This document shows, piece after piece, positions 392 through 43,564 of a DNA stretch of 64,000 bases; position 1 is the stretch's first letter; the number at the start of each line of letters is the position of its first letter. Source of the stretch: Callorhinchus milii (Eukaryota); NCBI RefSeq assembly GCF_018977255.1, contig NW_024704742.1, forward strand, positions 19,160,001 to 19,224,000. Reading direction: 5' to 3'. Under the pieces are notes generated by a model. That model was not told the DNA's origin, made no database searches, and saw nothing but the letters and a program-made list of their open reading frames with translations. Position numbers and translations under genes: made by a program.

Positions 392-1312
392 AATAATAAT
401 AATAATCCTTGAATTTGATATAGCACTTTATCACGTCTTAGCGACGTCTCAAAGCACTTCACAGAATATACTGTAAAGTGAATTGACTGTATATTTTGTG
501 GCCGAAACGCAGCAGCCAATTGCGTACAGCAACAACAAAATTACATTTATAGAGCGCCTTTCACATCAGTAGGATGTCCCAAGGTGCCGGACAGTCAGGG
601 GTCAAGACCCAAGCATGGGTGAGGGGTGGGGTAGGGGTGAGGGAAGGCAGAGAGGTGGGAGGGCAACTGAAGGCACGATCAAAGAAGAGGGTCTTGAGAC
701 CAACCTTGAAGGAGGCAAGGGAGGAAGCGAGGTGAAGTAACTGTGGGATGGAGTTTCAGAGTGTGGGGCAGAGAGGCTGAAAGCTCAGCCACCGATGGTA
801 GGGCAGGTCGGGCGGGAGACATAGAGCAGGCCTGCTGAACGGAAGGAGCGGGCAGGTTGGTAGAGAGTCAACAGGTCAGAGAGGTAGGACGGGGCAAGGC
901 CATGGATGGCCTTGAAAGTGAGGACGAGGATCTTGAATTCGATCCTCTGGGGGATGGGGAGCCAGTGGAGTTGGGTGAGCGTGGGAGTGATGAGGTCACG
1001 GAGCCTGGTGCGCGAGACGAGCTGCAGAGTTTTGGATAATCTGCAGCTTGCAAAGGGAAGGGAAACAGTGGGACAGTAGTGTCCCACAAACAGTCATGGA
1101 GTGAAGTGTCCAATTTATTTATTTTTTTTAAGGAATTTTTATGCCCGGAAAAGCAATCCACCAATTGACTAACAACTGGGTTCCTAGTTACTGCTAGGTA
1201 AACAGAGCCGTGTGGAGTAAGGAAACTTGCTCAACATTTCGCCCTGCCGGGAATCAAACCCAGGTCTCTTGCTTGTGAGAGGATAGCTCTAACCACTGAG
1301 CTACAGGGCTCC
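392..1312 (-). mobile_element. tRNA-headed CORE-like SINE (long variant), split by an L2 insertion at ~531-1072
   Basis: Tail (AAT)n-ccttgaatttgatatagc at 392-530. The body resumes at ~1073 (gtgtcccacaaacagtc) and runs through ttactgctaggtaaacagag and ggagtaaggaaacttg to the tRNA-like head ctctaaccactgagctacagggctcc. Confidence 0.85.
531..1072 (-). mobile_element. L2 LINE 3' fragment
   Basis: (AAC)n tail. ORF 785..1087 contains ITPTLTQLHWLPIPQRIEFKILVLTFKAIHGLAPSYLSDLL, the typical L2 ORF2 C-terminus. Confidence 0.92.
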
Positions 1313-5149: not shown

Positions 5150-5450
5150 CCTCAGCCTGGTTCAGTTGCCAGCACTCTCACCTCTGAGTCAGCAAGTTGT
5201 GTTCACAGTATGGTTGACACTCCAATGCTGCGGTGGAGGGGGGACCATTGTAGGAGATGCTGTCTTTCAGATGAGTCATTAAACCACGAACATGTCATTC
5301 TGCGCAGCTGCATATTAAACATCGAATGAGATTATTCAAAGAAAGAAAGGCGTATCTCCAGGTGTACTGGCTAAAAATGCCCAGGTAGAAATTGGTCATT
5401 CACTTCATTGGCTTTGTGGGGACACTGCTCTGCTCAAATTGGCTGCCCAA
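5150..5450 (+). mobile_element. Deu-domain SINE (SacSINE1/DeuSINE-like)
   Basis: tRNA-like head cagcctggttcagttgccagcactctcacctctgagtcag plus Deu-domain ggagatgctgtctttcagatgagtcattaaacc. Confidence 0.75.
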
Positions 5451-7621: not shown

Positions 7622-7944
7622 GGAGTCCTGTTGCTCAGTGGTTAGAGCACTCGCTTTGCAAGTGAGAGACCTGAGTTCAATTCCAGGCAGAGGGCGAAAC
7701 CTTGGACAAGTTTCCTTACTCCACACAGAGCCTAATAATAATCCCTCCAAAACAAAAAAACAATAATAAATTGGTCATTTTCAATCTACGACTGTTTGTG
7801 GGACATTGCTGTGCGCAATTGGCTGCCGCGTTCGCCCACAAATATACAGTCAATTCACTTTACAGTGTGTTCTGTGAAGCACTTTGGGACGTCCTCCCGA
7901 TGTGAAAAGCGCTATATCAAATGCAAGGATTATTATTATTATTA
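7622..7944 (+). mobile_element. Full-length young tRNA(Ala)-like SINE, short (CORE-deleted) variant
   Basis: A box tgctcagtggttagagc, B box gagttcaattcc, anticodon-like ctttgcaa, accttggacaagtttccttactccac, and shared tail ending aatgcaaggat(tat)n. Confidence 0.93.
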
Positions 7945-11430: not shown

Positions 11431-11774
11431 ATAATAATAATAATCCTTACATTTGATATAGTGCCTTATCACGTCTTCAAAACATCTTGAAGCGCTTCAC
11501 AGAATATGCTGTAAAGTGAATTGACTGTATATTTTGTGGACGAAATGCAGCAGCTAATTGTGCAACAAACAGTCGTGGATTAAAGCGACCAATTTTTTTT
11601 GAGGGAAAAGCGATCCACCAATTTACTAACAACCGGGTTCCTACTTACTGCTAGGTAAACAGAGGTGTGTGGAGTAAGGAAACTCGCCCAACATTTCGCT
11701 CTGCTGGGAATTGAACCTAGGTCTCTCGCTTGCGAGGCGAGGTGAGCACTCTAACCACTGAGCTACAGGACTCC
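11431..11774 (-). mobile_element. Full-length CORE-like SINE (long variant)
   Basis: Tail, cttactgctaggtaaacagaggtgtgtggagtaaggaaac, and head ctctaaccactgagctacaggactcc. Confidence 0.92.
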
Positions 11775-39212: not shown

Positions 39213-39542
39213 AATAATAATAATAATAATAATAATCCTTGCATTTGATATAGCGCTTTTCACGTCGGGAGGACGTCCCAAAGCGCTTCACAGAACACAC
39301 TGTAAAGTGAATTGACTGTATATTTGTGGGCGAACGCGGCAGCCAATTGCGCACAGCAATGTCCCACAAACAGTCGTAGATTGAAAATGACCAATTTAAT
39401 TATTGTTTTTTAGTTTTGGAGGGATTATTATTATTAGGCGTGTGGAGTAAGGAAACTTGCCCAAGGTTTCGCCCTGCCTGGAATTGAACTCAGGTCTCTC
39501 ACTTGCAAAGCGAGTGCTCTAACCACTGAGCTACAGGACTCC
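39213..39542 (-). mobile_element. Full-length young SINE, short variant
   Basis: Near-identical reverse complement of 7622-7944, with a long pure (AAT)n tail. Confidence 0.95.
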
Positions 39543-40775: not shown

Positions 40776-42190
40776 GTAGCTGCAGGATACACAACAGTCC
40801 AAAGCTGTTGCCGCTGAAAATATGGTGAGCTGCATTACCTTATTTGAGATTCCACTCACAGTTCATTTATATTGCCCGCAGGTCTGCTGGTAACTGCTGT
40901 GTGTGACACAAATACTCACCAGCCACCACAAATTCAGAAACACCTACCACTCAATAATTTCCACTGAACGGGATTCAGCTCCTGCTGTGAGCTGCTTCTA
41001 ATACACACACACTTAAATATATTCTATAAACGCTCATTTGAAAATCACTCGCCCCCCCCCACCCCCCATCAGGCACATGTTGTTCCCTCCACCACTGTGA
41101 ATATTTTTTGCGAAACATTTGATGTAAACAATATGTTTTCCTTCCTTAACAACCCCAATTCACAAGAATGGTGTTTCTGCTGACCTCCTGCAACAATCAA
41201 ATTGATCTTCTTTCACTTAAAGGAACACTATACTACAAAGGTAACCCTTTTAACAGAAGGAAATGCTGGACTGCTCACTCATAACGACTCTTAGCAGGAG
41301 GATCCACTTTTGAACAACTTTATAAATCATTTTGCCCAAAAGTTTACAGTCAGTTCACATTACAGTATATTCTGTGAAGTGCTTTAAGATGTCTAGAAAA
41401 TATGAAAAGCGTTATATCAAATGCAAGGATTATTATTATTATCATCATCATCATCATGATTTGCCAAAAGTAATTAGGTTACTGTGGAGCAAAATGACAT
41501 GCATGGCTATATGGGATGGAATTCCACCTGGATCTAGATTCTAGTGTATCTATTAACAAGACTTTCAAAATCCAACATCAGAACCGGTTCAGTCTCTAAA
41601 AGGCTACAGACAAGGTGAAAAACACAATTGTTGCCTAGCGGCCTTGGCAAGAATGTCAATTAACCATAGGGACTGTGAGTAATTGTATTATGCTATGGAA
41701 TGACTCAGAGGAATGGGATTCTGTTGGGCATTAAATTGAGAATTTCTTTTGAACACCAAAATGAAACTCTCCTATCCAAGAAAAATTATCATATTTCTAC
41801 TCTTTAGCATTTAAATTACGTACAACATATTACTAATGCTCTCTGGAAATCCAACCCAGAGTCCTCCCACGTCAGCTCCAACCTCCCCACCTTTAAAGCT
41901 CACCTTAAGACCCAATGTTTTGACCATATTTTCGATCACCCCCCCTCTTGTCACATTACTCAGTGTGGTGAGAGCATCTTTATGGGACAACTTGTGACAT
42001 GCAAGCCACCTCTAGGGGTTTTTTTTGGTCAGCAGTGTCTGACACATCACCTTGCTTCAGATTATTCACAACCAAACTGAGAGTTCCATGCATCCCATCT
42101 ACACATGGAAATTTCAGAGATATCCTTGAAAATGGAATGCACACCCTCTCCCTGTAGGTACACATCCTGCTTACTTAATTCCGGTAAACA

Positions 42191-42759
42191 AAGTCCTGTA
42201 TCTTGCTGGTTAGACCACTCGCCTTGCAAACGAGAAGACCTGGGTTCTATTCCCAGTAGAGCAAAATGCTGGACAAGTTTCCTTACTCCACACACCTCTA
42301 TTTACCTAGTAGTAAGTAGGAACCCAGTCGTTAGCTGATTGGCGGATCACCTTTCCAGTGGTAATCCTTCAAAAAAAAATAAAAATAAATAATAATAATT
42401 TGGTCACTCAATCCATGACTCTTTGTGGAACACTGCTGTGTGCAATTAGCTGCTGTGTTTAGCACACAAAATATAGTCAATTCACTTTACAGTATCAAAA
42501 CACAAAATACTTTAGACGCTGGAAACCTGAAACAAAAACAGAGAGAGCTGGGAAAACTCAGCAGGTCAGGCAGCATCTATGGAGAAAGGAAAGTGAGTGA
42601 ATGTTTCAGGTCCAAGACCCTTCATCAGAACCTGCTGAGTTTTCCCAGCTCTCTCTGTTTTTGTTTCACTTTACAGTATATTCTAAGAAGCTCTTTGAGA
42701 CATTTTAAAGACGTGATAAGGAACTGTATCAAATGCAAAGATTATTGTTATTATTATTA
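42191..42759 (+). mobile_element. CORE-like SINE (long variant) interrupted by a Penelope-type insertion
   Basis: Head 42191-42260 and CORE-like tttacctagtagtaagtaggaaccc. The tail is broken at 42495 and resumes at 42665. Confidence 0.9.
42496..42668 (-). mobile_element. Penelope-like terminal fragment with hammerhead-ribozyme core and fold-back arm
   Basis: Minus strand 42628-42603 reads CTGATGA-A-GGGTC-TTG-GACCT-GAAAC. Perfect 39-bp inverted repeat at 42528-42566/42630-42668. Flanking 15-bp direct repeat ttcactttacagtat. Confidence 0.75.
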
Positions 42760-43564
42760 GACACAGGTTGGCAAGAGCCAAGGCTTCAGAACCCTATAGT
42801 GTCCATTGGGGTAATGCTGGAGTGTAACCAGTTAAAAACCAATTGATATTGCCATCTGGCAAGCTTTCCAACTGCTTGTCCAGCTAGGACCACCCTTGGG
42901 GTTAGGTGTTGGGCTTGCAGGGTTAACAGGGGCTGAGTGGGATGACTCTGTGTCCTCAGTGACTGGGGGCAATCTTTGTTTATGTGCGAGTGGTAAAAAC
43001 TCTGAGAATAAATAGGTATTTCAAAATCTGAAAGCCTGAGAAAATTAAACACATATGCTACCTCATCAAATTATGGCTCCGTGGATACTATTTATCTTTG
43101 CAACATGCATGCTACGGGATGTATTTCTAGAGAGCATCAGTCACTCCCCTGCGGTTTAATAAGTTGATATCGCAATTTAACAACACCTATTGAGATAATA
43201 ATAGAATGCATCACTCCGTGTTGCTCAGTCAGCTTATGTGGGTAAATTGTCTGAATCAACTTCTTCTCACCATAAAGTCTGAAGACATATTTGTGGCCGA
43301 ACAGCTCTGAGGCACTATTTTATTCTTACCTACATGCTTTGAATCGTGACAGTTCTCCCCAAACAGGTCCTGCATAATCGGCAAATTACATCTACAAAAG
43401 CCTGCTGTGCCAGCAAAGTAAATTCCCTTTCCAATTTTCCCTTTCTTTCATGTCCACATGGGAACTCTGCTCTCTAGCTGTGTTGCCAAGCATAGTCCAG
43501 TATTTGGGACTTTGAACTCAATTGTCTAATACAATGCTGGGTTGATGTTTATTTGCAGGAGATC

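Follow-up and report, generated by a model that had tools for sequence, protein, structure and literature searches.

A fold-back insertion in a SINE of Callorhinchus milii is most likely a miniature Penelope-like element insertion with a second, inverted cDNA

Introduction

What kind of element inserts as a short unit with two perfectly inverted arms inside a direct repeat, and how does its second arm arise? This question is raised by a locus in Callorhinchus milii (assembly GCF_018977255.1, contig NW_024704742.1), in the 64,000-nt stretch of DNA that was analyzed here and is called the window. In this locus, a tRNA-derived SINE is interrupted by a sequence that the first-pass annotation, made from the letters alone, had described as a tiny Penelope-derived unit with a hammerhead ribozyme. 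The second arm was attributed there to template switching at insertion or to later homogenization. We analyzed the insert, its relatives in the same genome and the published properties of Penelope-like elements (PLEs).

Results

The insert interrupts a SINE and is framed by an exact target-site duplication

According to the sequence and to a repeat search, the insert is 169 bp long, is framed by an exact 15-bp repeat and contains two inverted arms that match at 39 of 39 positions. The repeat search, which covered positions 42200 to 43000 of the window, revealed one direct-repeat family (42481-42495 and 42665-42679; 100% identity) and one inverted pair (42528-42566 and 42630-42668) and nothing further. 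Both structures are those that had been read from the sequence at first inspection. The features of the locus are as follows (positions are those of the window; u denotes a position in the 136-nt unit described below).

42192..42760, plus strand: host tRNA-derived SINE, approximately 385 bp without the insertion, split at 42495/42496
42481..42495: left target-site duplication, TTCACTTTACAGTAT; exact repeat, a single 15-mer in uninterrupted SINE copies
42496..42631, minus strand: main copy, the 136-nt 3'-terminal PLE unit (u1-u136); 91.9% identity to the natural copy L028:1501-1636
42496..42527, minus strand: tail, u105-u136, 32 nt, present at the main-copy end of the insertion only
42528..42566, minus strand: left arm of the inverted repeat, u66-u104 of the main copy, 39 nt, 100% complementary to the right arm
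42596..42631, minus strand: decayed minimal type I hammerhead motif, putatively assigned by comparison with family copies and published PLE features; no Rfam match
42630..42668, plus strand: right arm, the second copy, inverted, truncated at its 5' end and without a tail; u66-u104 in plus-strand reading
42665..42679: right target-site duplication, second copy of TTCACTTTACAGTAT; 100% match to the left copy

Read on the minus strand, the insert comprises the final 136 nt of the element, preceded by a 39-nt inverted copy of positions 66 to 104. The unit u1-u136 (window positions 42631-42496) starts with GTTCTGA and ends with GTGTTTTG; it consists of the hammerhead motif, approximately 70 nt of downstream sequence and the 32-nt tail. 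The inverted arms are separated by a 63-nt spacer. Two nucleotides (GT) are common to the right arm and the main copy, and 4 nt (TTCA, 42665-42668) belong to both the right arm and the right duplication; the TTCA is the microhomology that had already been noticed. Within 2 kb of the insertion, there was no sizeable reading frame and no other feature of note. The contigs of four public runs over positions 42100-43000 were short, repeat-collapsed pieces, none of which spanned a junction by 31 letters on both sides or contained an empty-site joint, and they were uninformative on expression, polymorphism and assembly.

To define the insertion site, BLAST hits of the left and of the right flank were paired on uninterrupted SINE copies in the window and in fetched loci. 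In 62 of 63 flank pairings, which are partly non-independent because some loci overlap, both copies of the 15-mer fell on one identical 15-mer (offset -14); the 63rd pairing was an alternative match in L069. Since the two 15-mers correspond to a single 15-mer in uninterrupted SINEs, we conclude that they are a true target-site duplication inside a SINE. The flanks aligned to many SINE copies, and the location proposed for the insertion was thereby confirmed. Copies matching the flanks have Rfam tRNA heads elsewhere in the window (e.g., 11772-11696 and 1310-1239). The same tRNA-derived SINE crowds the window (1239-1310, 7628-7690, 11696-11772, 39469-39540 and at least 12 further sites). Four SINE heads in the window scored above the Rfam tRNA threshold, and 12 SINE copies span the insertion site.

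The insert probably is the extreme 3' end of a Penelope-like element

Relatives of the insert were sought in the window's own assembly (991,535,955 bases; 1,762 contigs). The insert as query yielded 2,784 first-look candidates and a second query yielded 1,216; 40 candidates were scored in each case. Most of the scored matches to the insert spanned only the last 136 nt of the query, which defines the unit u1-u136. A 351-nt upstream query gave 984 more candidates, 40 of which were scored. In three longer loci (L032, L035 and L040), coding sequence is followed by approximately 450 to 500 nt and then by the unit.

The reading frame of L032 (L032:1702-3114, minus strand; 470 aa) showed 43% identity (181/417; E = 3e-117) to residues 486-900 of the homologue P0006. 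A Pfam scan of P0006 revealed RVT_1 (32.6 bits; cutoff, 29.6) and GIY-YIG (27.2 bits; cutoff, 22.6), and P0001 and P0011 scored above the cutoff for RVT_1 only. Altogether, 28 homologues of the L032 frame (827 to 1,130 aa) were retrieved, with PF00078 listed for 22 and PF01541 for 4 of them; PF28514 and PF26215, which are also listed for homologues, were not returned by the Pfam scan. The L032 frame itself matched no Pfam family at E values up to 0.1 and no relative in the PDB, and its identity as a reverse transcriptase (RT)/GIY-YIG frame therefore depends on the alignment to homologues. A protein search of the genome produced 1,783 candidates; all 51 that were scored were partial, and most contained stops. 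A unit upstream of a reading frame, as in the pseudo-LTRs that PLEs form by partial tandem copies, was not found in the recovered copies, none of them full-length (an 8-kb locus, three long loci and the region obtained with a query from a homologue's N terminus).

An RT followed by a C-terminal GIY-YIG endonuclease is described as the defining architecture of endonuclease-bearing PLEs (Craig et al. 2021, PMC8557442; Frangieh et al. 2024, PMC11167929). Since the unit is collinear with an RT/GIY-YIG-bearing frame in the longer copies, the window insert can be assigned to the extreme 3' end of a PLE. We put the probability that the insert is a PLE 3' fragment with an inverted partner at roughly 0.85; most likely, it is a miniature yet complete PLE insertion in a SINE. 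Membership in the PLE class is supported by three of the four features tested, namely, the RT plus GIY-YIG frame, a tail at one end and an inverted, 5'-truncated partner. The partner is represented in the window by the arm u66-104, and likewise occurs at 10 of the 29 loci of the less biased of two samples (sample 2; see below). The Penelope-type origin suggested by the first-pass annotation thus held: the unit ends longer RT/GIY-YIG copies, and the inverted partner, a one-end tail of approximately 33 nt and the target duplication are present.

Additional observations were made on members of this family. Compared to L043, 443 bp are missing from L050 (sense strand, approximately 5150-5160), a gap that covers the last ~45 endonuclease codons and the greater part of the 3' untranslated region. 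Its ends share a 2-nt overlap (CT), and one reading of the ends, CT..AC, is an antisense GT-AG; the gap looks like a deletion derivative rather than a spliced intron. Furthermore, an ATG at u56 begins a frame that is open for 27 codons to the unit end (u56-u136; window positions 42576-42496, minus strand). By analogy to the Anolis element, the frame of which starts within the hammerhead region, the element's reading frame might begin at this ATG; a comparison of homologue N termini gave no support either way. At u107, 25 of 67 copies are without one T in the run after CAGA, a loss that apparently marks two tail sub-lineages.

Each head-to-head pair has one tailed and one tail-less end

The ends of the copies were compared in two samples. 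Sample 1 (the window and L002-L030; 30 loci) was obtained with a query that included both tail and arm and is therefore biased, while sample 2 (L054-L082; 29 loci) was obtained with u1-96 only and is thus free of tail and arm bias. The 3' ends of the family fall into two classes, at approximately u97-111 and at u132-137. The gap between these classes is the known PLE tail, which is reported to comprise 30-40 bp and to be often located at one insertion end only (Craig et al. 2021, PMC8557442). In vitro, two RT start sites flank the segment that corresponds to the tail, as reported by Frangieh et al. 2024 (PMC11167929).

Head-to-head pairs were present at 19 of 30 loci in sample 1 and at 10 of 29 loci in sample 2; two are shared, resulting in 27 distinct pairs. 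Scored at the locus centers, every one of the 27 pairs had one tailed and one tail-less end (19/19 in sample 1 and 10/10 in sample 2). Four further pairs outside the samples (L032, L041, L050 and L033) agree on a single tail. Of the solo copies of sample 2, those at 11 loci had a tail and those at 7 did not. The outer ends of the 19 arms of sample 1 lie at u86-109, and the 7 solo tail-less copies of sample 2 end at u98-109. The inner arm ends are spread from u-3 to u104 among the pairs, and the head-to-head junctions show either a 1- to 4-nt overlap or 1 to 28 nt of filler.

The first-pass annotation had proposed a genome-wide search for further copies of the insert with target duplications. 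Indeed, the family is abundant, and exact duplications of 9-16 bp were found at 27 of the 59 sampled loci, 2 of which are counted twice. The window copy fits the family pattern: its main copy (u1-136) is tailed, its arm (u66-104) is tail-less, and it has a 2-nt joint, a 4-nt target overlap and a 15-bp duplication. The tail status of an old head-to-head pair, L021:1850-2017, was unscorable. This pair adjoins a (CA)n microsatellite (L021:1780-1850), and PLE relatives are reported to favor microsatellite targets (Craig et al. 2021, PMC8557442).

The copies share a sharp 5' end

In sample 2, the starts of 22 of 29 central copies are located within u-4 to u+3. At three junctions (L014:1472-1500, L009:1490-1500 and L012:1636-1650), we observed 9 to 26 nt of filler with repeated bits of the unit's first 10 to 20 nt, which resembles the result of stuttering or of template jumps at the 5' end of the RNA. 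Taken together, the clustered starts and the stuttered filler look like the trace of a real RNA 5' end rather than of random truncation. The possibility that the sharp end is the product of hammerhead cleavage was rejected, since the predicted cut lies after u32. The sequence CCAGTTC, located at the 5' end and 3 nt upstream of the hammerhead core, fits the initiator consensus and suggests a candidate transcription start. A start at u-76 is shared by L057:1795, L068:1424 and L079:1737 and represents a second preferred 5' end besides u1.

A putative minimal hammerhead of the family is decayed in the window copy

On the minus strand, positions 42628-42603 read CTGATGAAGGGTCTTGGACCTGAAAC, the sole exact match to CTGATGA-N14-GAAAC in the window. 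If one mismatch was allowed, 2 matches were found versus 0.47 expected, and 9 of 100 shuffles gave at least 2. The parts of the predicted motif are the following, all on the minus strand.

Core: helix I 5' strand, u1-3; CUGAUGA, 42628-42622; unpaired A, 42621
Helix II: GGGUC, 42620-42616; loop UUG; GACCU, 42612-42608
3' part: GAAA, 42607-42604; C-A-U-U, 42603-42600; helix I 3' strand, 42599-42596

The family majority motif consists of CUGACGA, an unpaired A after A9, a 5-bp helix II (GGGUC/GACCC) with the loop GUG, GAAA and ACGU-U, followed by GACU, which pairs with AGUU just 5' of the core. It has G10.1-C11.1 closing helix II, a palindromic C15.2-G16.2 (ACGU), U17 and a 4-bp helix I. In the predicted minimum-energy fold of a natural copy, helices I and II form. 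When a custom descriptor was applied to 300,959 bases, all 43 matches were in this PLE family, and 20 shuffles gave none; a second hammerhead family was not detected with this descriptor in the bases scanned. Both boxes were retained in 57 and the whole motif in 30 of 81 sampled copies.

Rfam hammerhead models, which had been named as a check on the motif, recognized neither the window copy nor an intact family copy: there was no match in the whole window, in the window copy (E values up to 10), in 20 loci (up to 1) or in the intact copy alone (up to 10). PLE minimal hammerheads were originally found with a custom descriptor and not with such covariance models, as described by Cervera & de la Pena 2014 (PMC4209133). 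Beyond the search descriptor, the features given in that work are an extra base between positions 9 and 10.1, G10.1-C11.1, a palindromic 15.2-16.2 and a short helix I, the palindrome implying action as a dimer (Cervera & de la Pena 2014, PMC4209133). The identification of the family motif as a PLE minimal hammerhead is supported and holds at the level of the published descriptor. Of the hammerhead originally proposed for this locus, the descriptor features and the CUGANGA/GAAA spacing, kept in the 57 of 81 copies with both boxes, were borne out, but a match to Rfam was not.

Nine positions (u8, 17, 24, 30, 33, 106, 115, 119 and 120) distinguish the window copy from the family majority; the rows of L058 and L077 were disregarded in the underlying alignment. 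Three changes are structural: C11.1 to U, G16.2 to A and G1.1 to C. This copy has a G-U at 10.1-11.1 and a C-A at 15.2-16.2, and only the unpaired A is retained of three features tested. Accordingly, G10.1-C11.1, the palindrome and the first helix I pair are lost, while the CUGANGA and GAAA boxes and helix II are present. The CpG decay that had been suspected is evident, since most family copies read CCGAAACG and the window copy reads CTGAAACA. The transcript of the window copy was predicted to form one 39- to 40-bp hairpin (-85.2 kcal/mol; z = -9.6), not a hammerhead. Given the three structural changes and this single long-hairpin fold, the window copy is not expected to self-cleave, and its self-cleavage is, according to the structural models, very unlikely; the earlier guess that it may not do so was a reasonable one.

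The second arm is most likely a second, independently primed cDNA

The outer ends of the arms lie at the family's tail-less 3' terminus, and the other pairs show normal divergence (see below); both observations point to a second, independently primed cDNA. Purified PLE protein is reported to cleave and extend both target strands, and RT initiation in vitro to occur at two neighboring internal positions, which form the boundaries of the tail (Frangieh et al. 2024, PMC11167929). Since the purified Anolis PLE cuts and extends both strands, the simplest account is that two cDNAs were made, one per strand and start site. Thus, the arm most likely represents a second cDNA, for which the other target strand served as primer and synthesis began at the tail-less start site. 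The complete two-strand, two-start-site mechanism, which we derive from the family anatomy and the published in vitro work, we regard as rather probable.

By this mechanism, the element endonuclease would cut both SINE strands 15 bp apart, and each freed 3' end would prime reverse transcription of the element RNA. On one strand, synthesis would start at the distal site (position 136) and would result in the tailed main copy, the cDNA of which would run to the discrete RNA 5' end, located 3 nt upstream of the core of the hammerhead. On the other strand, synthesis would start at the proximal site (approximately position 104), aided by the 4-nt TTCA match, and this cDNA would stop after 39 nt. 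The two cDNAs would then be joined at the 2-nt GT overlap. In the published experiments, RT initiation is described as independent of homology to the cut DNA (PMC11167929); the 4-nt match between the arm start and the target at this locus is a counterpoint. With 7.2% differences within pairs and 7.0% between pairs, the comparison of arms with main copies is uninformative on whether one or two RNA templates were used.

Alternatively, a single cDNA could have been made, the nascent strand of which folded back or switched template and copied part of itself. In line with this explanation, the joints show brief overlaps, namely, GT (2 nt) where the arm meets the main copy and TTCA (4 nt) where it meets the target, and template jumps at the RNA 5' end do occur, as seen from the filler and stuttered sequence at the L014 and L009 junctions. 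However, fold-back predicts a symmetry axis at the junction, whereas here position 66 joins position 1, and the inner arm ends are variable (u-3 to u104). Moreover, outward fold-back copying should include the tail, but the arms of sample 1 stop at u86-109, like the solo tail-less copies. A single-cDNA origin is therefore unlikely in our view.

The arms (78 nt in total) and both duplications have zero internal differences, while the remaining 97 nt of the main copy have 9 differences from the family majority. By arithmetic scaled from this family-majority comparison, approximately 4 arm differences would be expected (Poisson P of ~0.015). Such identity beside a decayed core would be explained if the arms were once different and were later homogenized by gene conversion or hairpin repair. 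The family shows no sign of this process: in 23 pairs with an overlap of at least 30 nt, we counted 116 arm-partner differences in 1,620 nt (7.2%), compared to 7.0% to unrelated copies, and 11 of the 23 pairs were closer within than between. Short arms elsewhere differ at 1 to 3 positions in 32 to 50 nt, and 0 of 39 is therefore not an outlier. Furthermore, conversion would not bring both arms back to the family majority. We consider homogenization quite improbable. Template switching and homogenization, the two origins originally offered for the second arm, are thus both disfavored, since the arms end at the tail-less terminus and the other pairs diverged normally.

For the second, independently primed cDNA as the preferred origin, the decay of the core beside intact arms can be viewed in the light of L006, in which T8, A30 and C33 of the window copy recur together. 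Part of the decay was therefore probably already contained in the template RNA, and some core changes were probably inherited from it. We think that the insertion is younger than the core decay suggests. The insertion of a decayed template RNA agrees with the in vitro dispensability of the hammerhead, since hammerhead-dead RNA is reported to insert equally well (Frangieh et al. 2024, PMC11167929).

It is highly improbable that the hairpin functions as a small-RNA precursor or that it is an artifact of assembly. Sub-threshold Rfam matches to miRNA precursors were obtained (e.g., MIR533, 59.9 bits versus a gathering score of 80), but they involve unrelated plant and animal models on both strands, as for any long perfect hairpin, and were rejected as generic hairpin matches. 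The same architecture occurs with different target duplications at many loci and thus is not an assembly error. Finally, a DNA transposon of the fold-back or miniature inverted-repeat type, bounded by terminal inverted repeats and a target duplication, could account for the perfect 39-bp inverted repeat inside a direct repeat and for the strong hairpin (-85.2 kcal/mol; z = -9.6), but it can practically be dismissed, since the left arm is non-terminal with the 32-nt tail outside it, the arm varies from 26 to 141 nt across loci or is absent, the duplications vary from 9 to 16 bp, and the unit shows collinearity to the 3' end of an element that encodes an RT.

A more far-reaching proposal can be made only tentatively, and as a whole it is more doubtful than the mechanism outlined above. 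The one-tail rule and the arm ends at the tail-less terminus could be the footprint of a symmetric two-strand insertion, in which one PLE particle uses two neighboring start sites, one per cut strand. At the same time, the mini-copies of 100 to 136 nt could be run-off copies of a short transcript from CCAGTTC, which would be mobilized even with a dead hammerhead.

Discussion

The locus is an ordinary example of the known PLE insertion pattern, each element of which has already been described for PLEs. What sets this case apart is its scale (136 + 39 nt) and the more precise account of how the arm arose. As a single copy, the insert changes no picture, being a dead fragment of a known retroelement class in repeat-rich DNA; its value is that of a clean, fully delimited example. 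In the surrounding family, there are thousands of short copies; their 5' and 3' ends are sharp, and each pair strictly has one tail. This one-tail-per-pair pattern is in-genome support for the in vitro model of PLEs that cleave both strands and extend them from two start sites, and the family can be mined for a genome-wide test of the two-start-site model.

The 5' inversions of LINE-1 invite comparison. In twin priming, as Ostertag and Kazazian are said to have described it in 2001, the second target strand also primes, and the inverted segment lies within one pair of duplications. Reportedly, the inverted part is upstream RNA that is absent from the direct part, and its start is variable. In contrast, the inverted part described here repeats the same 3' region and has a fixed start site. 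LINE-1-style twin priming was rejected as an explanation, since it fails to account for an arm that duplicates the same 3' region.

Non-LTR retrozymes are also short hammerhead sequences that are related to PLE terminal repeats and are mobilized by PLEs, according to the descriptions given by Cervera & de la Pena 2020 and in the preprint by Li et al. 2026. They are defined in these sources by tandem arrays and circular RNAs, whereas the units described here are dispersed, occur solo or head-to-head, and have their own target duplication each. Head-to-tail tandem units were not found among the sampled copies, in which the nearest same-strand spacing is at least 117 nt (L054, L057 and L079).

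The putative hammerhead of the family resembles the metazoan PLE minimal hammerheads described in PMC4209133 in its type I topology, the CUGANGA and GAAA boxes, the unpaired base between 9 and 10.1, G10.1-C11.1, the short helix I and the palindromic 15.2-16.2, and also in its occurrence mostly in solo copies or opposite-strand pairs. It differs in helix II, which comprises 5 bp in this family and 6-8 bp in the examples of Cervera & de la Pena 2014 (PMC4209133). Unlike the hammerheads described there, the window copy has no G10.1-C11.1, no palindrome and no first helix I pair.

With the endonuclease-bearing PLE insertions of the clades Penelope/Poseidon, Neptune and Nematis, as characterized by Craig et al. 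2021 (PMC8557442), the insertions analyzed here share the strong 5' truncation and the adjacent inverted, 5'-truncated copy at the 5' end. Also shared are the 30-40-bp tail at one end, the hammerhead near the repeat end, and the RT with C-terminal GIY-YIG in long copies. Compared to the insertions in that study, the window insert is an extreme miniature of 136 + 39 nt.

The Poseidon element of Anolis carolinensis, as studied in vitro (PMC11167929), starts reverse transcription at an AC-rich stem-loop, 111-118 nt from the beginning of the reading frame, and is reported to need no target homology. In contrast, the start context here is U/G-rich with a weak predicted stem only (-4 kcal/mol), and the arm start shares 4 nt with the target. 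Otherwise, the published in vitro reactions of Anolis Poseidon are like the events proposed for the SINE insertion, in that cutting and extension affect both strands, the tail lies between two adjacent start sites, and the hammerhead is dispensable (PMC11167929).
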